Positions 1,985 to 28,023 of a stretch of DNA of 64,000 bases are shown piece by piece. The notes under the pieces were generated by a model. That model worked only from the letters and a program-made list of their open reading frames with translations, ran no database searches and was not told the DNA's origin. The position numbers and the translations under genes are program-made. The DNA lies in assembly GCA_027026255.1 (NCBI GenBank), contig JALVOT010000014.1:23986-87985 (forward strand), read 5' to 3'. Source of the stretch: a candidate division WOR-3 bacterium (GTDB lineage: Bacteria; Hydrothermota; Tepidihabitantia; SM23-42). Within the stretch, counting starts at the first letter, position 1, and every line of letters begins with the position of its first letter.

Positions 1985-2774
1985 TATTAAATGGAACTGC
2001 GGGGATTAAACCATTCCCGGCAAGAATTTTCTGGCCCTTTGGGGATAAGACATAATCAATGAATTTTTTGACTTCACCTTTTGGTTCCTCAAGAAGTAAT
2101 AATAAAAATGGTCGACAGAATTTATAATGGTGGGAGATAAGATTTTCCGGGGTGGGTTTTATGCCATCAATGGCGATAGCCTTTTCCCGTTCATCAACCA
2201 GACCTGCAGATATATATCCGATACCGTTTGGTGTTGTGGCGATAATCTCTCTCACCGAGCCGTTAGAGTCCTGGACAAGGCAGCGGTCACTTATTTCTTC
2301 TCCCTCCATTATCAGTTCCTCAAATGAACCCCGGGTGCCGGAACCTTCTTCACGGGTAACCGGGATTATTATCTCATCCTTTCCTCCGACATCTTTCCAG
2401 TTTCTTATTTTCCCGGTAAAGATACCCCGAATCTGTTCAACCGTTAGATTATCCACGGGATTGCTCGGATGGACTATGACTGCAACGCCATCCATTGCGA
2501 TTAATATCTGTTTAAGCCGTTTCTCATCGCCAATCAGATGTCTTGATGAGGTGCCGATATTGCAGATGCGATTGAATGTCGCCTGGATTCCTGCGGTTGA
2601 ACCACCACCCTGGACAATGATTGCGATGCCGGGATGTTCACGCATATAATTGTCTGCGACCTGTTCAATAAACGGCTGGACCGAGGTTGAACCGGCGATA
2701 ATAATGCCGGAGCCTGCCTTTTTCTGGGTGCAGGTAAGCATAGTAAAGGTTAAAAGCATCAGAAAATATCGCAC
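1974..2774 (-). CDS. pstS: Phosphate-binding protein PstS (probable lipoprotein, GTG start)
   Basis: 266 aa with signal peptide and periplasmic-binding-protein motifs (SGTRGSFEE); first gene of the pst operon. Confidence 0.75.
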   Translation of the reverse strand: MRYFLMLLTFTMLTCTQKKAGSGIIIAGSTSVQPFIEQVADNYMREHPGIAIIVQGGGSTAGIQATFNRICNIGTSSRHLIGDEKRLKQILIAMDGVAVIVHPSNPVDNLTVEQIRGIFTGKIRNWKDVGGKDEIIIPVTREEGSGTRGSFEELIMEGEEISDRCLVQDSNGSVREIIATTPNGIGYISAGLVDEREKAIAIDGIKPTPENLISHHYKFCRPFLLLLLEEPKGEVKKFIDYVLSPKGQKILAGNGLIPAVPFNNER

Positions 2775-2783
2775 GGTCAGGTT

Positions 2784-2811
2784 ATTATAATCAGAATAAC
2801 CAAATCGTCAA
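2784..2811 (-). promoter_or_regulatory. sigma70-type promoter for pstSCAB: TTGACG, 16 bp, TATAAT, 9 nt before the GTG start
   Basis: Read directly on the minus strand: -35 at 2806-2811, -10 at 2784-2789. Confidence 0.5.
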
Positions 2812-2850
2812 TAAAATAATTCATCACTCAGGTAAATGATTCGATAACCT

Positions 2851-3033
2851 ATGATTTTTTCTAAACTTCTTAACATCAATCTTTATTCTGGATTTAAAAA
2901 TCGCCATTCAGGAGGGGTGGCGAGTTGTGGTTCAAGTGTTGAGGAGGCATTTAAAAATCTGAAAGAGGCAGTGGAGCTTTATCTTGAAAATGCCCGTGAA
3001 TTAGGATTACTGGAGCAAATTGAAGCTGAATGA
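2851..3033 (+). CDS. HicB-like (UPF0150) antitoxin-family small protein, no HicA partner
   Basis: C-terminal stretch SCGSSVEEAFKNLKEAVELYLENARELGL resembles the HicB/UPF0150 motif (GC.SQG.TLEEAL.NAKEA.ELYLE). No toxin ORF adjacent. Confidence 0.35.
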   Translation: MIFSKLLNINLYSGFKNRHSGGVASCGSSVEEAFKNLKEAVELYLENARELGLLEQIEAE

Positions 3034-3078
3034 TTTTTCAAGGGGAAATTTCATAATTGTATTATTAAAATATATGAA

Positions 3079-3513
3079 TTATTTGCCAAAGTCAATTTTT
3101 ATATTTATATCAGAAGGCACACGAAATCGTAATAAAATTTTAGAATCACCACTTAAGCGTTGTTTTTCAGCTCTAAATAGTATATTGAGATGTATAGAAT
3201 TATCATTTGTTTTTTCTGCTTGATTAGTAGTATTAGAAGAAAAATGATGTAGGTGTGCTTTTATATTGAGATATCCAGAAAAAGTGTTGTTCAATTTATC
3301 GATTGTTAAATAGCCAATAGCATCGGTTGTTCCTTCTGACAAGGAATATAGAAAACCATTAGCTTTATGGTAAAGAAATGATTTTATGGAGTCAGATTCA
3401 ATATTTACTGAGTCCATCAGGCAAGTATTAAATTTAATACATAAGAAATAATTATGTTGTATAACATCAAGATCATACATACTTGGTGATGCATAGTATC
3501 CATAGATTACCAA
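3079..3513 (-). CDS. Hypothetical protein, possibly an orphan toxin-tip remnant (TTG start)
   Basis: 144 aa ORF lying directly 3' of a degenerate Rhs core-end relic (3522-3545) but out of frame with it. No recognisable motif. Confidence 0.3.
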   Translation of the reverse strand: MVIYGYYASPSMYDLDVIQHNYFLCIKFNTCLMDSVNIESDSIKSFLYHKANGFLYSLSEGTTDAIGYLTIDKLNNTFSGYLNIKAHLHHFSSNTTNQAEKTNDNSIHLNILFRAEKQRLSGDSKILLRFRVPSDINIKIDFGK

Positions 3514-3521
3514 TACAGAGT

Positions 3522-3545
3522 AGTTTCCTTAAGGGGTTATTGATA
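3522..3545 (-). repeat. Degenerate relic of the Rhs core 3' end (encodes ..NNPLR..)
   Basis: ccttaaggggttattga matches the block encoding VNNPLRF at 7555-7571 and 5624-5640. Confidence 0.4.
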
Positions 3546-3562
3546 CCTTTAGTAACATAGTA

Positions 3563-4024
3563 TCAAATTCCTACAACCAAAAGCTGCAGGAATTTTGGCC
3601 CCATCCATAGAGCGAACCAGGTATTATCACCCTTAATTCGCAACCAGAACCACATAAGTAGAATTACCGCTATTGAACCAAGTAAACAATACCAGCCACT
3701 GATGGTTAAAATTAAACGTAATAACAATGGCGGTTCGAATTTCTTGCTGGCCTTACGAAGTTTAAGAGAAAATATAAAGATGAATATTCCGATCAGAACC
3801 AGAGGTGTTAAACCGATACGCAAAGGGGTAGTATCAGCAACCGTTGGGAATAAATCTGCATACCGTGACCAAGCATCCCAGAGTCTTAATACATATTCAA
3901 AAATGGTATTGAAAATAAAACGTGCGAGTATAGAGTATGGGAAATAGAAAGCAAAAGCACTAAAGAGAATTATAACTGCCCCTAAGAGAAATTTTTTAGT
4001 GAAGAAGTCTTTTATTTGCAGCAT
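3563..4024 (-). CDS. Small polytopic membrane protein, candidate Rhs-toxin immunity protein (paralogue of 4556-5050)
   Basis: 153 aa with about 4 TM segments; shares blocks with the 164-aa protein (PLRIGLTPLVLIGI vs SLRIALTPLLLIGI; ISGWYCLLGSIAVILLMWF vs ICGWYCLVMTSIVILAMWF). Lies just 3' of a cassette-junction relic carrying an intact promoter. Confidence 0.5.
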   Translation of the reverse strand: MLQIKDFFTKKFLLGAVIILFSAFAFYFPYSILARFIFNTIFEYVLRLWDAWSRYADLFPTVADTTPLRIGLTPLVLIGIFIFIFSLKLRKASKKFEPPLLLRLILTISGWYCLLGSIAVILLMWFWLRIKGDNTWFALWMGPKFLQLLVVGI

Positions 4025-4112
4025 TAATGCTCCTATTTATAAAAGTGTGAATTGACCCATTTTTTAGCAAAATAATATTCATCTTAGAGCGAATTTTCAC
4101 ATATTTCCTATC

Positions 4113-4225
4113 TGATAAGTAGTTTATCCCATTTTCGTCAAGTCTGCTGCCCGTAGTCTTTAATTTCTTCTCCATCTTTCCTTATTGATAATTATAGCAA
4201 AATTATCAAGGATTTCAAGATTTTT
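4113..4225 (-). repeat. Degenerate relic of an orphan Rhs-CT cassette 5' junction (leader plus first ~25 codons, no toxin domain)
   Basis: About 75-80% identical by eye to 5733-5840. Minus strand reads MEKKLKTTGSRLDENGINYLSDRKY, compare orphan cassette MKNELKTFSKELDENNLNYFCQRYY. Confidence 0.55.
4191..4218 (-). promoter_or_regulatory. Conserved cassette promoter (TTGAAA, 16 bp, TATAAT, 15-nt leader) in the relic cassette
   Basis: Same box sequence and spacing as the orphan-cassette promoter at 5803-5830. Confidence 0.5.
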
Positions 4226-4247
4226 TTTGATTCTTACGCATTTTTAT

Positions 4248-4532
4248 TTAGAATAAGAATATGTTGTAAATGTCTGTATGAATGCGGTTTAGCAATGTCC
4301 TTATGGATAAAACAATGCCTGTCAATCCAAATATGAAGTTTATTAATCTAACATAAGATAATTTTCTTTTGTCTTTATATGTCAGACCATACATTACTGC
4401 AATTATACTGAAAGGAATGCCTAACACAGGCTGGGTAGATAAAATCAAACCCATAATTACCCATACAAATTTATCAAAAATATTACTACTTGAATAATTA
4501 GTATCCATATTTTTTTTCTTGTTGATGAACAT
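4248..4532 (-). CDS. Small membrane protein (2-3 TM), function unknown
   Basis: 94 aa hydrophobic ORF between the two immunity-candidate paralogues. Confidence 0.4.
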   Translation of the reverse strand: MFINKKKNMDTNYSSSNIFDKFVWVIMGLILSTQPVLGIPFSIIAVMYGLTYKDKRKLSYVRLINFIFGLTGIVLSIRTLLNRIHTDIYNIFLF

Positions 4533-4555
4533 TATATATTAAATACATAATTATC

Positions 4556-5050
4556 TTAAGGCCCAGCTGGCATATAAATTGGCGCTCCGCTTAAATAGCC
4601 ATTCAGAAAATGGCCATAAACCATTATAAAAACGCTTGATTTATCAGGCCAAGTAAATGCACGAATTTGTATATCAAACCACATCGCAAGAATTACTATG
4701 CTTGTCATAACTAAACAATACCAACCACAAATCAATGAAATCCATCTAAGATTTATTAAACGATTAACTTTGCATATTGAAGATAATTTCTGTAACAAAA
4801 GAAAAAGTAGTATACCAATGAGTAGTAAAGGTGTAAGAGCGATACGTAAAGAATTTATACTGTTGGGAAGTGCTGATGTTGACAACCAGAACCTGGTTGT
4901 ATAATTCCATATAGTAACAAAGATGAACTTGGCTAAAATAGGGTATGGCAAATACCCGGCGATAAAAGCAATTATTATTGTAATTATGCCGATTGCAGCT
5001 CTATTCAGAAAAAGCTTATGTTTTGCGACTTCACCCAGTGCATTTATCAT
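4556..5050 (-). CDS. Small polytopic membrane protein, candidate immunity protein for the orphan Rhs toxin
   Basis: 164 aa; start overlaps the stop of the orphan toxin ORF (5047-5050), the usual toxin-immunity arrangement; paralogue of 3563-4024. Confidence 0.5.
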   Translation of the reverse strand: MINALGEVAKHKLFLNRAAIGIITIIIAFIAGYLPYPILAKFIFVTIWNYTTRFWLSTSALPNSINSLRIALTPLLLIGILLFLLLQKLSSICKVNRLINLRWISLICGWYCLVMTSIVILAMWFDIQIRAFTWPDKSSVFIMVYGHFLNGYLSGAPIYMPAGP

Positions 5051-5787
5051 TTTCTATAGAAATAAAAATAAACCCATCTATTTGCGAAGAGATGGCCTGA
5101 ATTATTTGCTTTTCTGTGAATTATGTTCCACCAAGATAGGTCAGTCCTTGTCCAACCGTGGGCACGTAGCCAAATAATTTCAGCAAATTCATGGGCAAAA
5201 GATTTTCGTAGACTCCAAGTCTTATTCCATTGCATTTTATTAATTTTAAACTCCCATATTGTCAAAATCTCATTTTTTGGATTACCTGCAACAGATTTTC
5301 CCAGGTGTTCAACAATCATATATTCAAATTTAGACACTTCAGCCCAATAATCTATTGTGGCAAGAAATCCAGAATTTTCTTTTAACCAAGATATTGCATT
5401 AAGAATATCATCTAAGGTTATTTTTCCCCCCGGATGATAACTTTCCCAATCATCATATGTAATTTGATCCAGCATCTTTTCAAGACTGCGCATTGCGTTC
5501 ATTAACTTACTTTGTCTTCTCAGTTGTTCCATATGAATAAATGTCCACCATGAGGGGTCGCCAGCGTCTACGGGACTTTCTTTTTTAGATTCCATCATTC
5601 TTTCACCAGTAGGGTCGGTAAACCTTAAGGGGTTATTGACACAATAGGCATAGGGAGATGATGCAGGGGAATTCTCAGGGTCCAACCTCAAAAACCTCCC
5701 AATCTCTGCCTCATAATACCGCTGGCAGAAGTAGTTAAGATTGTTTTCATCAAGTTCCTTGCTAAAGGTCTTTAATTCATTCTTCAT
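5047..5787 (-). CDS. Orphan Rhs C-terminal toxin cassette (Rhs core tail plus unrecognised toxin domain)
   Basis: 246 aa. N-terminus MKNELKTFSKELDENNLNYFCQRYYEAEIGRFLRLDP...YAYCVNNPLRFTDPTG duplicates the end of the full-length Rhs core (FDENNLNYFCQRYYEAEIGRFLSLDP...YAYCVNNPLRFTDPLG), then diverges completely. Confidence 0.65.
   Translation of the reverse strand: MKNELKTFSKELDENNLNYFCQRYYEAEIGRFLRLDPENSPASSPYAYCVNNPLRFTDPTGERMMESKKESPVDAGDPSWWTFIHMEQLRRQSKLMNAMRSLEKMLDQITYDDWESYHPGGKITLDDILNAISWLKENSGFLATIDYWAEVSKFEYMIVEHLGKSVAGNPKNEILTIWEFKINKMQWNKTWSLRKSFAHEFAEIIWLRAHGWTRTDLSWWNIIHRKANNSGHLFANRWVYFYFYRK
5612..5762 (-). repeat. Direct repeat of the Rhs core 3' end (orphan copy)
   Basis: 41-bp block 5612-5652 is identical to 7547-7587; about 70-bp block 5690-5762 is near-identical to 7640-7712. 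The spacer between blocks differs. Confidence 0.8.
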
Positions 5788-5802
5788 TTTTCCTTCTTGA
5801 TA

Positions 5803-5830
5803 ATTATAGTAAAATCAAGTGATTTTTCAA
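5803..5830 (-). promoter_or_regulatory. Internal promoter of the orphan toxin cassette (TTGAAA, 16 bp, TATAAT, 15-nt leader with AAGGA)
   Basis: Read on minus strand: -35 at 5825-5830, -10 at 5803-5808, ATG at 5785-5787. Confidence 0.5.
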
Positions 5831-5955
5831 GAAGATATTTCATCGCCCGGTATTTTATTTTTCTGGAAAAGTTGTGTATTAACAGAGGAAAATAATTGTG
5901 GAATCGAAACAAGTTGAAGGAAAATAAATATAAGTTAATTATTCCACAGCGTTTG

Positions 5956-6747
5956 TTAATGAAACACACCTCGTATATTCAATATTACCGATATTAATAC
6001 GAAAATATTAAAGCTCACAAAATAACCAATCGGTAATAACAAAGAATGTCGTTTCCAATATAAGTAAATTACGAGCAGTCCATTAAATAAAATCCAGATT
6101 GTGTTAATGATACTAAACTGATTGTGCGAGAATATTATCCCATGGCACAATGTGAAAATTATGGTAGTAACTATTGCACCAGTTTTAATACCCATCTTTT
6201 TAGCAAAAGCAGGGAATGCAAATCCTATGAAAAATATAGATTCTCCAATTGGTCCTATGATACTTACAATAATTGCGCGTGAGAAGTTTATGTAATAATT
6301 AATTTGATTGGAGGCAATAAACTTTGGTACTTTTGGTAAAATATTGTTGCCTGTAATTATGATTGGTAGTAATAATATAAGTTTTAAACATAAAGCCAGG
6401 ATAAATCCAGTAAAAAAATAAATTAGCCACCTATCGGATCGTAAACCTAAAGTTCTTAGTGATCCAAATTTTCTCAGTTTTATCCATAATATAGGCACAA
6501 ATGTGTAGAGAAGTTGATTAATCATTAAGCATAATATAACTATATACCAACGTTTTTTAAGATAAGTTAATAATATTGAATAAAGTTCTGAATTTTTTTC
6601 GAAATGTGAGAAATCTATATGTGTAGGTGAAAAGATTTTAAATGAAATTATGACCAAACTCAAATATATTAAAATAATAAGAAAAAAGGTCACGACGACA
6701 TCAGTTATACCCCATTTTACATTAAGTATCTCATTAGATTTGTTCAT
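5956..6747 (-). CDS. Polytopic membrane protein with degenerate CPBP/Abi-like motifs, candidate immunity protein for the full-length Rhs toxin
   Basis: 263 aa, about 7-8 TM. GPIGESIFFIGF and FTLCHG...SHNQF loosely match CPBP motifs (EExxxR, FxxxH, HxxxN) with catalytic positions substituted. First gene 3' of the Rhs toxin; extremely AT-rich. Confidence 0.4.
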   Translation of the reverse strand: MNKSNEILNVKWGITDVVVTFFLIILIYLSLVIISFKIFSPTHIDFSHFEKNSELYSILLTYLKKRWYIVILCLMINQLLYTFVPILWIKLRKFGSLRTLGLRSDRWLIYFFTGFILALCLKLILLLPIIITGNNILPKVPKFIASNQINYYINFSRAIIVSIIGPIGESIFFIGFAFPAFAKKMGIKTGAIVTTIIFTLCHGIIFSHNQFSIINTIWILFNGLLVIYLYWKRHSLLLPIGYFVSFNIFVLISVILNIRGVFH

Positions 6748-6951
6748 ATTTATCTTATGCTGGCAATAATTGTACAGCGATATTTCGATTGAAGAAAATA
6801 ATAATCAATGGTCTTGATACGATATTCGATTTGAGGTTATCTGTAATGAATAATCGAACTTATTCAGAAATTTATAAAAATGCAAACTGTATAGGTGGTA
6901 TCGCATCTGTAGTCCTGGTTAAATATCTATATCTGATGTGATATATAGCCA

Positions 6952-9900
6952 TTAGCTTAAGCCCCTGGGAATAGGAAGAATTTCTTTTTCCTCTTTTTTG
7001 GTGGGTTCAGACGGTTTTCGCCACCAGGCTGGTGGAAACATATTTTTATAGTAATCATCGTTCCACATTTCATCGAGTTCCTCGATTGGTAATTTATTAT
7101 AACCACGAGGAGGATAAACGATATTCTTCGGATGATGTATATTCTCAAAAGCAGGCTGCCTTTCTTTATGTTTTTCTGGTTGAGGTAGATTAGGTTCGTT
7201 CGGATAGAAAGATGATTTGGGGATAATCTGTTCTAATGATTCGATGAAGTTCTCGCCAAGAATTATGTATCCAGACAATTGGAGTATAATACCTACGTAA
7301 TGTGTTATGGGGTGAGGGTACGCTTCAAGCATTACTCCCAAATTAATTAATTCTATTTCAAGCTGTGAGCCTTTCACAGTTTCTAACGCTTGACTGCCCA
7401 AATTTTTTGTTGTATTATAGAACACTTTTATTTTTGTTTCAATATTTGCTTCAGAATTTTCAAAAAATAGATTCAACCCTGATTCATGGCCAATGAATTC
7501 GTAATAATCGTTTGGCGACATAAAGAGAGGTACCTGCAGCCCCAATGGGTCGGTAAACCTTAAGGGGTTATTGACACAATAGGCATAACGGTTCTGGGAT
7601 TGAGGAACTTCAATATAACCACCAAAGGGATCAAGAGACAAAAACCTTCCGATCTCTGCCTCATAATACCGCTGGCAGAAGTAGTTAAGATTGTTTTCAT
7701 CAAATTCCTTGCCGGTGAAGGTATGGGTGTTATCAGCAGTACCTGATTTTGTTATTTCACCGAATGGATAATAATATGCAGTCCAGACCACTGAACCCGA
7801 TTCATCGGTCATCTTCCTTGATGAACCTAAAACATCACAATGATAAAAGGTGGTATCTGCACCATCAATCCTTGCAATATGTAATCCACCGGCATAGACA
7901 TACCTTGCCAGTATTGAACCATCCGGGGAATATTCAATAAGCGGATTTATACCGTCATAAACATAGTAAATCGTATAGTCAGTTGTTGTATTAATTCCGG
8001 ATGTAGTTATCTCACCATAGCCGTTGATTTCACCACCGAATGTTTTATTGGTGCCGGGAAAGACATCAACTGCATTTGAACCACCCTGATGCAGGGTATC
8101 AACATTCACAGGTAAACCAGGGTCAAAGGTTGAGATGGTCCACCGCAGGGGACCATAATGATTTAATAACTGTTTGGAGATCTTTATCTGGATACTGCCA
8201 TCAGGACCAATAATCCGTTCCACTGTCATACCAGAGGGCATTACAGTCTTTGTGCCGTCTGCCCTGTAAAAACCGTATTCTCCATCGTCTATATATAGAC
8301 AGTATTCCCAGGCAGCATTTTTTGGCACCTTTGTCTTCATATCTTCTGGTAAGGTAATTCTACCCGAATTTGGAATCGTGTCAAGGTCTAAGGTGATAAA
8401 GAGCTTTAATCGGCTGACCTGGGCAAAGATATATCGGTTGACGACGGTAAAGATATAATACCGGGCGGTATTTTTTATGTAGACTTTTTCAATATCAAGT
8501 CCTTTATTATATACTGTATCCGGACCGGATGATTTGAATCCTAAGTCGTTTGCTGCATCAGTGAATAGGGTTCTTGAAGTTATCCCTGTGCCGGGAGTTA
8601 ATTTATGATAATGTTTTTTGACCCTGAGGCCGGAACTGTTATAGGCATAATCAATGGTTTCAGGACCTTTTTTATAATAGATTAGCCGATTATTCCAGTC
8701 ATAGGCAAATGAATCGACCAAACTGCCTGAGGAATTGTTGCGTTTAATAATATTACCATTGTCATCATAATAATACTCATAATCTCTGTGGTCGGTTTTT
8801 AGCCGGTTGGTATTTGACCAGTATGAATATGAGTTACCATTTTTTGCAGTGCGGTTTCCTGTTTTGTCATAGCTGAATGATTGGATACCTGCTAATTGGG
8901 TGACCGCGGTGAGTCGATTCAGGGCATCATAGGTAAAGGTCTGGGTGTATCTGCTGTTAAGATAGTCGGTAATTGAATGGATATTGCTGTTATCTTCGTA
9001 AGAATAACCGAGTTTTAGAATATCACCGGTTTTATAAGCCCTCACCAGGATTGGACGAAGCCGGGAATCATAGGTTATTGTATCCACTACCCCGTTATCA
9101 TAACTTAGCTTTACAATCTGACCTGCAGGATTATATTTAAAGGTTGTTAAAAGACCGGGGACGGATTTTATCTGGCCGAGTCTATTGTATCGGTATTTTA
9201 TTTTGTCGTCTGTTGATAAATAGATCAGGATGCACTGGTTCGCATAATTAAAATTATAGGTAAACGATTTTTCACCACTCAGACCTACAATATTAACCCT
9301 TTTGAGTCCTAATCTGCCTCGATCATCATAGTAGTATGTTATTGAATCTATTCCGCAGGTAACAACTTTACTCAGTCGACCCGTAGGATTAGCCAGTTCA
9401 TAAGGAGTTGGTCCTCCGGTCGTAATATCATAGGTCAGTCTGACTTTATCTGCCCAGGTGGAGCCATTATCGGTTGAAAGTTCTATTTTGGTCAAACGGT
9501 TGATATTATCATAGGTATACCGAACCCATCCATTCGGGTCTTTTTTTAGCGTTAAATTTCCCAGGTCATTATATTCATCATAGAGCACATCAACTGGGTT
9601 ACCATTGTAATAATATGAAGATGTTGCATCCGGACCATCCACACCACGCAATCTGCCAAGGGTATCATAATAGTATTTTGTCACCCTCCCTTCGGCATCG
9701 GTCACTTTTGTCAATCTGCCGAGGGTATCATATTGATAACAGGTGCGGTTATTATTGGCATCAATGATTGTATCAATTGCGCCGTAGGCATTATAAATAT
9801 GGATGGTTTTATTACCCTTTTCATCAATGATGGTGTCGGTATTGGCATAGTATTTTACCTGAGAATATTTACCATCAGGATGGGTTATTTTTATAATGCG

Positions 9901-10257
9901 TCCCAGAGCATCATACTCATAGGTGGTAATTTGAGACCAGGAAGGTGAACTATAACTGTATGATGTACCGAAGATTGTATAGGGGTTACAAACTGAATCT
10001 TTTTTACTGTTTTTATTATAAGAAATATTCCGGATAATCGTCCGGGCGTTATCAAAATCAAATTTTTTGGTTTGAATCAGTTTACCAAATCCATCATAGA
10101 AGTTTTTACTTACTATCCAGTATGTAGCCCCAGCTTCGTCGATGAAGTCTATTTTTATCGAATCAATAACTGCAGATGGAATTTCAAAGTCTTTATAGGT
10201 AATTCTCCGGGATGCTGAAGATTCATTGGGCTGGAAGGTTTTTATTAATCGGCTCAT
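6952..10257 (-). CDS. Rhs/YD-repeat protein with C-terminal polymorphic toxin domain of unrecognised family
   Basis: 1101 aa with many YD repeats (YDALGRII, YDTLGRLT, YDALNRLT). Rhs core end FYHCDVLGSSRKM...YAYCVNNPLRFTDPLGLQ, then about 210 aa unique C-terminus ending in a Pro/Lys-rich tail. No signal peptide or PAAR-like N-terminus visible. Confidence 0.85.
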   Translation of the reverse strand: MSRLIKTFQPNESSASRRITYKDFEIPSAVIDSIKIDFIDEAGATYWIVSKNFYDGFGKLIQTKKFDFDNARTIIRNISYNKNSKKDSVCNPYTIFGTSYSYSSPSWSQITTYEYDALGRIIKITHPDGKYSQVKYYANTDTIIDEKGNKTIHIYNAYGAIDTIIDANNNRTCYQYDTLGRLTKVTDAEGRVTKYYYDTLGRLRGVDGPDATSSYYYNGNPVDVLYDEYNDLGNLTLKKDPNGWVRYTYDNINRLTKIELSTDNGSTWADKVRLTYDITTGGPTPYELANPTGRLSKVVTCGIDSITYYYDDRGRLGLKRVNIVGLSGEKSFTYNFNYANQCILIYLSTDDKIKYRYNRLGQIKSVPGLLTTFKYNPAGQIVKLSYDNGVVDTITYDSRLRPILVRAYKTGDILKLGYSYEDNSNIHSITDYLNSRYTQTFTYDALNRLTAVTQLAGIQSFSYDKTGNRTAKNGNSYSYWSNTNRLKTDHRDYEYYYDDNGNIIKRNNSSGSLVDSFAYDWNNRLIYYKKGPETIDYAYNSSGLRVKKHYHKLTPGTGITSRTLFTDAANDLGFKSSGPDTVYNKGLDIEKVYIKNTARYYIFTVVNRYIFAQVSRLKLFITLDLDTIPNSGRITLPEDMKTKVPKNAAWEYCLYIDDGEYGFYRADGTKTVMPSGMTVERIIGPDGSIQIKISKQLLNHYGPLRWTISTFDPGLPVNVDTLHQGGSNAVDVFPGTNKTFGGEINGYGEITTSGINTTTDYTIYYVYDGINPLIEYSPDGSILARYVYAGGLHIARIDGADTTFYHCDVLGSSRKMTDESGSVVWTAYYYPFGEITKSGTADNTHTFTGKEFDENNLNYFCQRYYEAEIGRFLSLDPFGGYIEVPQSQNRYAYCVNNPLRFTDPLGLQVPLFMSPNDYYEFIGHESGLNLFFENSEANIETKIKVFYNTTKNLGSQALETVKGSQLEIELINLGVMLEAYPHPITHYVGIILQLSGYIILGENFIESLEQIIPKSSFYPNEPNLPQPEKHKERQPAFENIHHPKNIVYPPRGYNKLPIEELDEMWNDDYYKNMFPPAWWRKPSEPTKKEEKEILPIPRGLS
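7547..7712 (-). repeat. Rhs core 3'-end segment repeated at 5612-5762 (master copy)
   Basis: See 5612-5762. Confidence 0.8.
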
Positions 10258-11269: not shown

Positions 11270-12208
11270 TTATTCTAATACAATTCTGGTTCCGGTCTGA
11301 CCAAGGATTGCCTGGCGTGCCTTGTCAAGGGATGTAATAATAACTTCTTTACCACCCTTTTCTAAAAAAGATATTGCTGATTCAATCTTGGGACCCATAT
11401 TACCCGGGGGGAAATGTCCTTCCTGTAAATATCTCTTCGCCTCAGAAACAGTCAGATTACGCAGCATTTTCTGGTCTGGTTTATTATAGTTCAGGTAAAT
11501 ATATTCAACATTGGTCAGGATTAAAAGGGTTTGAGCCTGAATATCAAAAGCAAGCACTGCCGAGGCACGGTCCTTATCAATTACTGCATCAACTCCTTCA
11601 TATGTTCCATCATTTTCTATATATACCGGGATACCACCACCACCGGCGGCGATAACAATAGTTCCTTCATCAACCAGTTCTCGAATGATACGTCGATTTA
11701 CAATCTTTATGGGTCGGGGTGAGGGCACGACCCGACGATAGCCTTTTCCTGAATCATCTTTTATCACCCAGTTGAATACCTTGGCAAGTTTTTCTGCCTG
11801 GTTTTTTGTATAGAATGGGCCAATAAATTTTGTTGGATTAATAATTGAAGGGTCGTCAGGGTCAACAATCACCTGAGTGACGATTGTAATTACATCCCTT
11901 TTAATACCCATCTGCATTAGTTTATTCTGAAGGCTCTGTTCAATCATATACCCCATACCGCCTTCAGTATCAGCAACAATCACACCCAGGGGCAGAACAG
12001 GAATGTCATGGGCGGTTCTTTCCACGCGCAAAAGGGCATTGCCCACCTGCGGTCCATTACCATGGGTAACGGCGAGGTTATAGCCTTCCTGGATTAATTC
12101 AACAATGCCCATCAATGCCTTTCTTGTATTGGCGAATTGTTCATGAATATTTTCTTTGCCGGTCTGGGCGATGGCATTTCCGCCCAGGGCAACGACTGCC
12201 TTCTTCAT
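11270..12208 (-). CDS. arcC: Carbamate kinase
   Basis: 312 aa; MKKAVVALGGNAI...VTHGNGPQVG...IAAGGGGIPV motifs of the carbamate kinase family. Confidence 0.85.
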   Translation of the reverse strand: MKKAVVALGGNAIAQTGKENIHEQFANTRKALMGIVELIQEGYNLAVTHGNGPQVGNALLRVERTAHDIPVLPLGVIVADTEGGMGYMIEQSLQNKLMQMGIKRDVITIVTQVIVDPDDPSIINPTKFIGPFYTKNQAEKLAKVFNWVIKDDSGKGYRRVVPSPRPIKIVNRRIIRELVDEGTIVIAAGGGGIPVYIENDGTYEGVDAVIDKDRASAVLAFDIQAQTLLILTNVEYIYLNYNKPDQKMLRNLTVSEAKRYLQEGHFPPGNMGPKIESAISFLEKGGKEVIITSLDKARQAILGQTGTRIVLE

Positions 12209-24048: not shown

Positions 24049-24197
24049 ATATTCTGGTCTGTCCAAAGTGTAAGGGTGAATTGGAATATGACCAGAAAAA
24101 TCAGGAGTTAATTTGTCACAAATGTAAACTTGCCTATGCAATAAAAGATGATATTCCTATTATGCTTATTGAAGAGGCAAGGAAATTGAATGATTGA
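24027..24197 (+). CDS. Trm112/YcaR-like small zinc-ribbon protein (56 aa; below ORF-track cutoff)
   Basis: [56 protein letters not shown]; AAGGAGG SD at 24016-24022. Confidence 0.6.
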
Positions 24198-27100
24198 CCT
24201 TGCACTGATAGTTTTCGTTATTGCAGGGACAGATATCCGAACAGTTGAAGACGGTGTTATAGTATCATTTTCAATGACAAAGGTTGAGGCGGAAAGTCTT
24301 AAAATCCCTGATGCGCGGTGGTTAAATAAGGTCGGTGATCCGGCACTGCCTTGTTTACACTATAAATTCGGTATCCCACAGAATGGTGAGGTTGCGGTTT
24401 CGATACTGGAGAATGATGAGGCGGTGATCGATGGTCAGAAGATTGACCCAGTGGTTGAGTTGGGTATTAAGGAATCGGCACCCCGGGATACAGAATTATT
24501 CCGCAGTGAAGTCTATAAAGAAAATAAGTTTTTCCCTCACAATTTGGTTGTTGTTTCCGAACCGGGATATCTGCGTGATCTCTATACAGTTGATGTGCGG
24601 ATTAATCCGGTCCGTTATAACCCGGTGAAGAACCGGGTGCGTTATTCGAGAAGATTTATTATAAAAATAAAGTTTAAAGGTAAGCCGTTCATTAATGCTC
24701 CTTTTGATACTACATTTGAAAGGGTAATGCGCCATCTGGTTGATAATTATGAGCAGTGCCGTCTCTGGCGTTTGACACCATCACGGAATGGGACAAATCC
24801 ATTTGCCCAGGGAACCTGGTTTAAGATAGCGGTTGAAAAAGAGGGGATTTATCGGATTGGCTATAAAGAGATTAAGAATGCCGGGATCGACCCTGCCCAA
24901 TTTGACCCCAGGACGATGCGGATTTATACGGCAAAATTTGACCTCTTAACACGGAGCGTTCCATTGCCTGATTCACTCGATTCATTGGTTGAAATCCCCT
25001 GTTTTGTTCAGGGTGAATCAGATGGGGTGTTTAATAAAGATGACTATCTTGTTTTCTACGGCTATCCAGCAAGCCATTTTATTCCTGATACCTCAATTTC
25101 CTGGTTTTATAATGGATATGCAAAAAAGAATATCTACTGGTTTACATTTGGTGGAAAATATGGTAAGAGGATGTCGAGGGTAGATGCCCGTTATAATGGA
25201 GACCCTGTCGATACCCTGGTACAGGAGGTGCTGCATTTTGAAGAGGATAATGGTAATCCGACGCGTTCTGGCATAAACTGGTACTGGCAGGAGGTTTCCC
25301 CGGGTGAGGGTCAGGGCGCTGAAACCTCGGTTAATATTGAACATCCCTTTGCAGCGGGAGATGCCCGTATCAGCGCCAGCCTTTTCGATTCAATCGGGGT
25401 GAGCGGTCCATTTATTTATCGTTTTTCCGTAAATGATAATATAGCTTATAATGAGACCTTATCGCTCAGTTCTCACTGGTCATTTCCTCCCCAGTATTTT
25501 AATATCGAGACATCCTTAAAAGGTGATTCCTCTATTTTTAAGATTGAACTCATCCGACCCCAGGGGGTGGAAGGCAAGATGCTTGCCTGGTTTAATGCCC
25601 TTGATATTCTTTATCAGCGCCTCACCCGATTGACAGAACCTTTCCATGCATATTTTTCGGCACCCGAAGATTACTCTATCAAATGTGATGATGCAGAAGA
25701 ACCGGTTTTTGTCTTTGATATTTCTGATATACAAAATCCCAGGATGTTGTATAATTTAAAGCTGGATAATGGAAAACTTTATCTTTCAGGAACCTGCGAT
25801 TCTTTTCAGCTGCTCTATTTTTGTAAACTTGGTTCGACTGAACCGGTTAAATTGATTCCCGCCAAACCGGGAAAATTACGCGAGCATTCTTCTGGATGCC
25901 AGTATCTTATAATCACCCATCCGAAATTTTCTAAGGCGATAATGCCCCTTGTGCACTACCGCAGCCAGGACTATACAGTTAGGGTGGTGAATATTTATGA
26001 AATCTATGATGATTTTTCATACGGAAAGTTTGACCCCTTAGCGATTAAGCATTTCTTTTATTATGCCCTTAATAACTGGGATGTCTTTCCGAGTTTTGTG
26101 CTTTTGGTGGGTGACGGCACATACGATTATAAGAATAATCTTCATAAAGAAAATCCTCCCAATTATATTCCGATGTATGAAACAGGGAGTCTTTTAATCG
26201 GTAATCCCGGAATTCCTCCGAATACAATTTATGAAGGTGAATATACCGATTTTGGAGGCGGCGAGTCAGTTGCCTCAGGCAGAATCACGGTCAGGACCAA
26301 TGCCGAGGTCAGGGACTTTATTGATAAGTTAATTACCTATGAGACGAAAAATATTGACGGTATCTGGAATCAAAGGATTATCCTTGCCGGTGATGATGAG
26401 TATGCGGGAAACCACTGGGAAGGACCGGATATGCACTGTGGCGCCTGTGAGGCTATATTCAGGAATGTCCCGGATTCTCTTTATAACTTCGCCAAGATTT
26501 ATATGATAAGTTATCCGCCGTTTCCACCCTACGGAGGTCAGGTCAATAAGGTGAATGCCCGCAAGGCATTTATTCGGGAATTGAATAAGGGCGGTTTTGC
26601 CGGAGTCTATTTCGGCCATGGCAATACTCATCAGCTTGCCCATGAAGGGCTCTTCTATGATATTTATATTCCCGAAATAAATAATGGGAGACGATGTTAT
26701 TTCTTTTATTTTGGTTCCTGCACCGTAGGAAGGTTTGATGATTCGGATTATGAATGTATCGGTGAGGAATTTGTGCGGATTAAAGACGGCGCAATCGGCA
26801 CGATGGCATCAACCGGTGGCACCTATGTGCAGGGTAATGTGGCTATCGGTAATACTCTTTTTAGACTGATGACCTCACCGGATAGTGATTTGACAATGGG
26901 CGAGTGTTTTCGCATCGCCAAGGTGTATGGAAGCCCGTCATATCTTCTTATCGGTGAGCCGGCAACGAGATTAAGAAAAATAAAGACAAAAATGACATTG
27001 ACTGCCTTGAGTGATTCATTGAAGCCCCTTCAAAGGTTGAAAGCGGTCGGGTCTGTCCCTTATTATTATCTTGACGCCTTTGTTCGTGATACTACACATA

Positions 27101-28023
27101 TCGAGAAGTTTGATGCTACAACCCAGGATAAGATTAGTGGTCATGTCTATCGGTTGGTCCAGACCGGACGGAATGCCTGGAAACCGTTTGATTATCAAAT
27201 AGATGGTAAAGAGATATATTCAGGATTCTGGGATGATGATACTGCGAAGATGATTGTTCCGCAGGTATCTACGGTAAACCGCCCGGTAGTAAAATTGACC
27301 TATTGCGCCAATCGCAAATCTGGTTCGCTCGATTCAATTCTGATTTATGGGGTGGCATCACCTTCATCTGATGATCAGGGACCGCAACTAAAACTTTATG
27401 ATCAGGCAAGGGTTTTACAGAATGGGGATTGGGTGGATAAGGATTTTATCCTTACCGGTCGGGTTGCTGATATGAGCGGCATTAATCTGCTAAATTCAGT
27501 TGAGGACATCAATCGCGGTTTTTATCTCTATATAAATAATGATATCGATAATAGGATTGATTTAAGAGACTATTTTACCTATGATAAGAATTCCTATACA
27601 GATGGAACATTTAATGTGAAGATTAGCCTGCCTAATCCGGTTGATACAATTAAGATAAATGTTGCGGATAATAATTATAATCAGACATATCAGAAACTTA
27701 TATTAAATACCGATATTTATGAATCGGTTAAGATTTCTAATTTTCTGGTCTATCCAAATCCGATTACAAATGACGCCGGGGTGTGGTTTACATTTAACCT
27801 TTCAAGTTCAGCCCTGGTTAATTTAAAGGTCTTTACAATTGCAGGACGACTTGTAAAGACAATCGATGATTTCTACTGTCGAGCCGGTTATAATCAGAAA
27901 TTCTGGGATGGTCTTGATGATTCGGGTCAGCCTCTTGCTAATGGAGTTTATCTGGTCAGGGCATATTGTGAGAAGGCTAACGCCCGGACTGAAGTGATTG
28001 AAAAATTTATTATCGCCCGATAA
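24190..28023 (+). CDS. Gingipain-like cysteine peptidase (family C25) with T9SS-type C-terminal sorting domain
   Basis: 1277 aa; C25 catalytic dyad context [10 protein letters not shown]...[15 protein letters not shown]; C-terminal about 80 aa ([20 protein letters not shown]...[10 protein letters not shown]) resembles the T9SS CTD beta-sandwich. Confidence 0.7.

Follow-up and report, generated by a model that had tools for sequence, protein, structure and literature searches.

What is the function of two small membrane proteins of 164 and 153 amino acids, here called tm164 and tm153, whose genes follow a toxin cassette and the relic of such a cassette in a candidate division WOR-3 bacterium? 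Both genes are located in a stretch of 64,000 nucleotides (nt) from contig JALVOT010000014.1 (assembly GCA_027026255.1, positions 23,986 to 87,985), which in the following is referred to as the window; coordinates given without a locus name are those of the window. An earlier note on this DNA had described the two proteins as paralogues without a recognised family and had suggested that they are immunity factors. This suggestion is supported by linkage to a toxin in five locus types, by co-divergence with that toxin, by retention of the gene behind relics and by its spread as an orphan. We consider it probable that both serve as immunity proteins in the inner membrane, as part of an Rhs polymorphic-toxin array. 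The argument starts from four genes of this array:

5047..5787, minus strand: orphan Rhs toxin cassette of 246 amino acids, with the end of the Rhs core in residues 10-61 and the toxin tip in residues ~62-246.
4556..5050, minus strand: tm164, a membrane protein of 164 amino acids with three transmembrane (TM) segments, the candidate cognate immunity protein of the 246-residue orphan toxin.
3996..4175, minus strand: relic of a second orphan toxin cassette, an open reading frame (ORF) of 59 amino acids with an N-terminal leader and a piece of the Rhs core only.
3563..4024, minus strand: tm153, the 153-residue paralogue of tm164, with AGGAG ahead of it, a candidate immunity gene kept after toxin loss.

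The paralogy of the two proteins was confirmed by BLASTP using composition-based statistics (43% identity over 106 residues, E 2e-11). Each of them matches only the other in the 64-kb window, and a tblastn search with tm164 finds the tm153 copy with an E-value of 4e-19. The conserved blocks listed in the earlier note (FPY.ILA.FIF, LRI.LTPL.LIGI and GWYCL...VIL.MWF) were all found in the alignment of tm153 and tm164. They are not an artefact of composition, as the same blocks recur in unrelated metagenomic relatives.

The position of both genes relative to the toxin cassettes was also as had been described, tm164 following the orphan toxin and tm153 following the 59-residue relic. The ATG of tm164 (5050-5048) overlaps the TGA of the toxin gene (5049-5047) by the 4 nt that had been reported, as ATGA within the sequence ...AAAATGATA..., an arrangement from which tm164 is predicted to be translationally coupled to the toxin. 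At the second position, residues 1-25 of the relic match the N-terminus of the orphan cassette (48% identity, E 4e-4) as well as the main Rhs core, and the relic ORF overlaps the start of tm153 by 29 nt. Toxin motifs were found in no reading frame of the relic region (3990-4180), and the toxin domain of the relic has therefore been deleted.

Relatives of the two proteins were found only by means of profiles. A word-indexed single-sequence search with tm164 returned nothing except tm164 itself. An exhaustive HMMER search of 1.84 billion representative proteins with a two-sequence profile gave seven proteins or clusters at E <=1e-3, with tm153 recovered as P0002 of that library, and a profile of nine sequences gave three further members. 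Another two genome loci and one metagenome locus were added by searching 185,579 species genomes and the JGI metagenomes with a five-sequence profile, so that the family amounts to approximately 12 types after profile searching. No match was found by tblastn of family members against plasmid and phage collections. The statement that the family is not recognised holds for the curated libraries that were searched: Pfam, NCBIfam, PADLOC and PHROGs gave no significant or consistent match, PDB sequences gave no match at all, and in none of these libraries was there a hit above the cutoff or a family common to more than one of 11 members. The CPBP family (PF02517) does not match tm164, tm153 or their relatives, whereas a neighbouring protein of 263 amino acids does match it.

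All family members have FPYP.L, L(R/K)IALTP, (W)YC and (M)WF in common. The ratio of non-synonymous to synonymous substitution rates (dN/dS) among close copies is 0.21-0.56, and the gene is therefore taken to encode a functional protein. Relatives that carry an organism name are mostly from metagenome-assembled genomes (MAGs) of candidate division WOR-3. One contig (locus L016; GCA_003663345.1, QMZU01000049.1), which carries family member P0011 and has Rhs-type cassettes, was deposited as part of a 'Candidatus Aenigmatarchaeota archaeon' MAG. It was compared with L015, L009, L020 and L011; nearly identical contigs and a close paralogue on a WOR-3 contig share the assembly ERZ650341, and the archaeal assignment of L016 is probably a binning error.

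The earlier note had proposed searches with hidden Markov models (HMMs) and an analysis of genome neighbourhoods as a check of the immunity function. The contigs of all members were retrieved, their neighbouring genes were translated, and every ORF was searched with profiles. Wherever an intact upstream array gene survives, it is a homologue of the orphan tip of the window and lies directly upstream of the membrane protein gene. This was the case in five out of five locus types, i.e. the window, L003, L006/L007, L017 and L009/L015/L016/L020. The toxin-tip profile matches the ORF directly upstream in the window, L003, L006, L007, L009/L015/L016 and L017 with E-values from 1e-42 to 1e-86, and a homologue of the tip is also found at this position in L020. 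Toxin and membrane protein genes are on the same strand in the linked loci, and they overlap or are separated by no more than 42 nt. A fusion of the tip to an Rhs core (…GLNYFCQRYYDP.IGRF..LDP…) is visible in L006 and L017. The module is repeated in tandem in L009/L015 and in L011, with two pairs of a larger and a small membrane protein each, and L008 and L010 were too short for judging the upstream context. The earlier note had regarded a wide distribution in contexts unrelated to toxins as evidence against an immunity function. The family was instead found to be extremely rare, and its copies away from toxins belong to one subtype.

The 246-residue ORF has the layout of an Rhs toxin cassette, in which a core end is followed by a C-terminal domain that varies relative to the main Rhs protein. 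Its residues 10-61 match TIGR03696 (E 4e-13), and the ORF is 69% identical over 61 residues to the core end of the 1101-residue Rhs protein at the head of the array; the motif LDPEN-x18-DPTG is readable. The tip of 185 amino acids (residues ~62-246) is predicted to be all-alpha, has no TM segment and consists of 7% tryptophan in the window copy. Across the toxin family the tryptophan content is 4-8% and the maximum hydropathy over 19 residues is 0.7-1.4, so that the tip is regarded as soluble, and the motifs A.E..E, T..DL and GH..A are invariant in this order. Neither profile searches nor single-sequence searches gave a relative of the tip in Pfam or PDB, or a recognisable fold or family. Matches at the level of chance in these two libraries, e.g. 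to a bacterioferritin with E 0.3, were dismissed. The sequence AHEFAE was considered as a variant of the zincin motif HExxH and was rejected, since its histidine is a serine in L006/L007 and there is no second histidine at +4. The invariant acidic and histidine residues hint at an enzyme, although this is speculation. The earlier note had suggested envelope-acting toxins or sequestration at the membrane; an action of this soluble tip on the envelope is putative.

Four family members are found in orphan-cassette arrays without an intact cognate tip. These are tm153, P0007 (L009-type), P0012/P0013 (L011-L014) and a divergent member of 167 amino acids (L011/L013). In L011-L014 the gene follows a remnant of 121 amino acids, which contains a piece of the Rhs core as well as 'HQFTGKE' and 'VEGGSFAEYF'. 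Eleven residues of this ORF match the toxin leader of L009 (E 5e-4); as a relic of the toxin family itself it was not significant by HMM (E 4.7).

A further subtype, the P0004-type, is linked to the toxin in L017 and stands alone in L004, L005 and L018/L019, i.e. in three or four unrelated contexts. The gene has a DNA identity of 90-94% across L004, L005, L017, L018 and L019, the flanks differ, and homology is confined to the gene itself and about 50-100 nt. The copies of L018 and L019 are situated in restriction-modification (R-M) and defence islands with type I R-M, OLD-like ATPase and DUF262 genes. In both loci the orphan gene is preceded, at a distance of 17 nt, by the gene of a small Mrr_cat-like (PD-(D/E)xK) protein (L018, 7520-7939; L019, 5880-6320). 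Spread as a single gene is the expected signature of orphan immunity genes, and it is recognised here because the copies remain 90-94% identical to the toxin-linked copy with homology limited to the gene. The family as a whole has several of the features by which immunity proteins are identified, namely a gene on the same strand directly downstream of a tip, co-variation with one toxin family, and occurrence both in arrays and as orphan copies without a toxin.

How the protein is placed in the membrane can be predicted from its hydropathy and charge. In tm164 three segments at about residues 18-34, 67-88 and 102-125 exceed the Kyte-Doolittle threshold, and these segments contain almost no acidic residues across 11 family members; tm153 likewise has three uncharged TM helices. 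Segment 35-58 carries charges of both signs across the same members and is therefore regarded as amphipathic. The N-terminus and the loop 89-101 have a net positive charge and the loop 59-66 a net negative charge. Following the positive-inside rule for these loop charges, the N-terminus is predicted to be inside and the C-terminus outside. An AlphaFold model of a family protein, with a predicted local distance difference test score (pLDDT) of 73.7, has four helices and a hairpin. With the predicted topology, the conserved motifs and the hairpin would be located at the periplasmic face. A comparison of the P0004-type copies of L017 (1798-2235, toxin-linked) and L019 (6385-6822, orphan) shows that 10 of the 14 residue differences fall within the last 28 residues. 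Judged by this pattern, the last 28 residues, which correspond to the predicted periplasmic hairpin, may be a determinant of specificity.

A third gene, on which the earlier note was silent, is positioned between the two cassettes of the window:

4248..4532, minus strand: tm94, a small membrane protein of 94 amino acids (86 when started from the ATG at 4508) with two TM segments, a partner gene downstream of tm164.

Two hydrophobic segments are found in tm94. A homologue occupies the same position in L003 (58% identity, E 2e-32), and the tm94 HMM also matches a gene at the same position in L010. In the L009- and L011-type loci each gene of the larger membrane protein is followed by an ORF of 71-105 amino acids with two helices, often overlapping it, and a loose I(D/E)K…P….IP(F/L) pattern is common to these small WOR-3 ORFs and tm94. 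As a small two-helix protein follows the larger one in most loci, a two-part membrane immunity unit is suggested.

The proposed function is as follows. The array consists of a full-length Rhs gene and subsequent orphan cassettes, where each toxin tip is followed by a gene that would protect the producing cell and related cells. For the 246-residue orphan tip, tm164 would be the cognate partner. Its paralogue tm153 would belong to another tip of this type, since deleted, and would have been kept as protection against neighbours carrying that toxin. A tm164-type protein would span the cytoplasmic membrane, with the N-terminus on the inner and the C-terminus on the outer side. The outer, periplasmic face would carry the FPYP, LRIALTP and MWF motifs, the amphipathic helix 35-58 and the C-terminal beta-hairpin, and there the protein would either bind the incoming toxin domain or shield its membrane-associated target. 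In most lineages it would act jointly with the small two-TM partner (tm94 in the window), possibly as a heteromeric membrane complex.

A more detailed version of this proposal can be put forward only tentatively. According to it, the 3-TM and 2-TM proteins form an obligate heteromeric complex of the inner membrane, acting against a new class of Rhs toxin, which is soluble, tryptophan-rich and probably enzymatic (invariant E..E / D / GH) and has a target embedded in the membrane or facing the periplasm. The larger protein would determine specificity through its C-terminal periplasmic hairpin. In one clade it would have become self-sufficient, and its gene would now pass alone from one uncultured bacterium to another, WOR-3 among them, as a mobile gene for resistance.

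Several observations weigh against the immunity function or against parts of it. The pairwise identities of toxin tips and of their membrane partners are correlated (Pearson 0.85, Spearman 0.71) over five linked pairs, which are non-independent and partly dominated by the divergent L009 pair, and a certain degree of co-divergence is to be expected of any two linked genes. As the membrane protein gene was the route by which the toxin-linked loci had been found, the statement that the toxin always has this partner is affected by an ascertainment bias; the toxin-profile search gave only two clusters, and the one locus to which the toxin itself led (P0010, L020) is built like L009. The tip has no hydrophobic hairpin or glycine zipper and is therefore unlike the pore-formers against which membrane immunity proteins are usually directed, and its structure model (pLDDT 42) is unusable. 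Regarding the small partner, it is absent after tm153 and in the P0004/P0005 subtypes, and the homology of tm94 to the small membrane proteins of WOR-3 was not established by hhalign (probability 5%; one comparison with E 0.008). Between the window and L003 the small partner is 58% identical, compared with 41% for the toxin and 48% for the larger membrane protein, and such a higher conservation is unusual for an immunity protein that determines specificity. Finally, the spacing of 17 nt behind the Mrr-like nuclease gene in L018/L019 allows another reading of these copies.

The roles of the two membrane proteins could be divided differently, so that only one of them is the immunity protein to this toxin; the other would be an accessory, e.g. 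for stabilisation or insertion, or would confer immunity to another agent, and either protein could take either role. Such a division agrees with the positional conservation of the pair in most loci, with the fact that either gene can be absent (there is no small partner for tm153, in L006/L007, in L017 and for the orphan copies), and with the small protein being the most conserved of the three genes. The larger protein, however, always adjoins the toxin, is retained on its own behind relics and spreads as a solitary orphan gene, which argues that it is sufficient, at least in the P0004/P0005 clade, and the alternative division is considered unlikely. It is also conceivable that tm164 and tm153 serve the toxin rather than immunity, as a holin-like release factor or as a helper for membrane insertion or export of the Rhs tip. 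A small 3-TM protein that is tightly coupled to a secreted toxin and followed by a second small membrane protein would fit such a role, and so would the absence of a recognisable secretion-system marker for Rhs in the window, where a scan of the large ORFs revealed no type VI secretion system, PAAR or other Rhs delivery genes. However, no holin family of PHROGs or Pfam and no phage sequence matched, and no lysis cassette is located nearby. Nor is an export helper expected to survive deletion of the toxin, to be repeated once per cassette and to spread singly into loci without a toxin, and we therefore hold a toxin accessory to be very unlikely.

The surroundings of L018 and L019 raise yet another explanation, in which the family would consist of mobile membrane proteins that have an independent function, e.g. 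as a phage-defence effector paired with the Mrr-like nuclease, and would be associated with Rhs through co-location in variable islands. The Mrr_cat-like protein (PF04471, E 6.5e-4, just below cutoff) directly precedes the membrane protein gene in both loci, the two genes are conserved together (937 nt at 92%), and type I R-M, OLD-like ATPase and DUF262 genes surround them. Orphan immunity genes are themselves collected by defence islands (10.1101/471110; PMC12744356). Against a defence effector, PADLOC gave no match, the Mrr-like gene is absent from every other locus, and L004/L005 share only the membrane protein gene with L018/L019. In addition, linkage of the family to one toxin domain was found in five independent locus types, together with gene overlap and co-divergence. 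This explanation, too, is held to be very unlikely. Because of the repetition of one gene per cassette, the retention after toxin loss, the single-gene mobility and the lack of a match to any holin or defence family, these three explanations are less likely than inner-membrane immunity proteins of the Rhs array.

The array is flanked by a phosphate ABC transporter operon (309-2774) on one side and a carbamate kinase gene (11270-12208) on the other, and its genes are on the minus strand. Its remaining features are the following:

6952..10257, minus strand: full-length Rhs/YD-repeat protein of 1101 amino acids with its own C-terminal toxin tip, the head of the array; PF05593 RHS_repeat E 3e-36, PF03527 RHS E 2.5e-11.
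5956..6747, minus strand: CPBP/Rce1-like polytopic membrane protein of 263 amino acids, directly after the main Rhs gene; PF02517 Rce1-like E 4.4e-10, above cutoff.
5716..5832, minus strand: conserved leader of orphan cassette 1, with a sigma-70-like promoter TTGAAA-16-TATAAT (5830-5803), AAGGAAA and ATG.
4105..4220, minus strand: leader of the relic cassette, conserved and alignable to that of orphan 1; promoter-like site at 4218-4191 (11/12, TG-extended).
3079..3513, minus strand: soluble ORF of 144 amino acids without family, the end of the array.

The G+C content is 0.27-0.35 over about 2750-7250, compared with 0.40-0.49 in the flanks that carry the phosphate-transport and carbamate-kinase genes. 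On account of this drop, the 3' end of the Rhs gene and the entire array of orphan and immunity genes are compositionally foreign. The 1101-residue protein also matches TIGR01643 and, in residues 829-907, TIGR03696 (Rhs_assc_core, E 6e-20; NCBIfam). The 263-residue CPBP/Rce1-like (Abi-type) protein behind it has at least six hydrophobic segments; from its position it is likely to be the candidate immunity protein for the tip of the main Rhs toxin. Membrane proteins thus close all three cassette positions of the array (the CPBP-like protein, tm164 and tm153), and the 144-residue ORF may be another orphan immunity gene. The leaders of both orphan cassettes are contained in an alignable block of ~115 nt, each with a sigma-70-like promoter (11/12 matches) and a ribosome-binding site, and the truncated Rhs-core reading frame starts at the ATG of this block. 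To judge by the conserved promoter, AAGGAAA and ATG in the DNA, the orphan cassettes seem to be transcribed and translated independently and not to be silent.

Other cassettes and genes were observed in passing. In L017 a second orphan Rhs cassette (2403-3458) ends in a glycine-rich tip that possibly inserts into membranes; this cassette is followed by two unrelated polytopic membrane ORFs of 153 amino acids (3491-3952 and 4092-4553). With these two further ORFs, membrane immunity candidates seem common in WOR-3 Rhs arrays. Small ORFs with a HEGMH (HExxH-like) motif, each followed by a conserved signal-peptide protein of 257/299 amino acids, form a recurrent cassette type in L011 (2564-2899) and L015 (2-253). 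Within the window, an ORF of 60 amino acids (2851-3033, plus strand) weakly matches a HicB-like antitoxin (PF15919, E 5.5e-4, below cutoff), and an Rfam scan gave no matches. A C25 (gingipain-like) peptidase of 1277 amino acids (24190-28023, plus strand) contains a propeptide and a C-terminal FlgD_ig-type domain, which is consistent with a diderm of the Fibrobacteres-Chlorobi-Bacteroidetes (FCB) group.

If the proposed function is true, three linked and unnamed families (an Rhs toxin tip, a 3-TM immunity protein and a 2-TM partner) are added from an uncultured lineage, which is candidate division WOR-3 as far as can be told. To our knowledge, nothing is known experimentally about interbacterial antagonism in this division. 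Membrane-embedded immunity proteins are poorly represented in databases, as they diverge fast and are hard to study. The locus would then be a useful test case for membrane immunity against a toxin that does not resemble a pore-former, as motifs, a candidate specificity region and natural orphans are all available. The type of array is textbook, and what is gained is annotation and a testable toxin mechanism, not a new principle.

Several known systems can be compared with the one described here. In Rhs and contact-dependent inhibition (CDI) orphan modules, displaced toxin tips are each accompanied by their own immunity gene. The present array resembles these and the acquired interbacterial defence (AID) clusters, in that displaced tips with immunity genes follow a full-length Rhs gene and immunity outlasts the decay of the toxin; it differs in that each of the two orphan cassettes has its own conserved leader, which contains an ATG as well as a near-consensus promoter and a ribosome-binding site, and in that its families are undescribed. 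Polytopic membrane proteins of the CPBP/Abi family (PF02517) serve as self-immunity to envelope-acting toxins, such as in bacteriocin immunity. The likeness lies in the use of a polytopic membrane protein for immunity, and a CPBP member follows the main Rhs gene in this very array, but tm164 and tm153 are about half the size, lack the CPBP motifs and do not match PF02517. Horizontal movement of immunity genes into other genomes has been described (10.1101/471110).

The remaining two comparisons are of architecture and function and not of sequence. In Pseudomonas aeruginosa the immunity protein to the Rhs toxin Tse5 (RhsP1) is Tsi5, which has two predicted TM regions and is found in the membrane fraction (PMC9637101). 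As in our locus, an Rhs tip is combined with a small cytoplasmic-membrane immunity protein encoded directly downstream. Tse5-CT is a hydrophobic pore-former, whereas the tip described here is soluble and tryptophan-rich without a TM segment; Tsi5 has two TM regions, whereas the present protein has three together with an amphipathic helix and a hairpin, and is usually accompanied by a second small membrane protein. The pairing itself is paralleled in the type VII secretion system of Staphylococcus aureus, where the toxin locus encodes two polytopic membrane proteins, ExiC and ExiD, which protect from the outside of the membrane. Extracellular EsxX is countered only by the two together, and their genes are also found as orphans in antitoxin islands of strains without the toxin (PMC12744356). 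ExiC and ExiD correspond to the pair of larger and small membrane proteins, and their orphans to the copies of L004, L005, L018 and L019. EsxX, in contrast, is an LXG toxin that depolarises by a glycine zipper, the toxin here is of the Rhs type, and the phylum and the secretion system are different. No soluble cytoplasmic immunity pair like ExiAB is evident in our loci, and some lineages have the larger protein alone. Taken as a whole, Rhs arrays that combine orphan cassettes with immunity genes are a type of system already known; the families that make up the present one are new.

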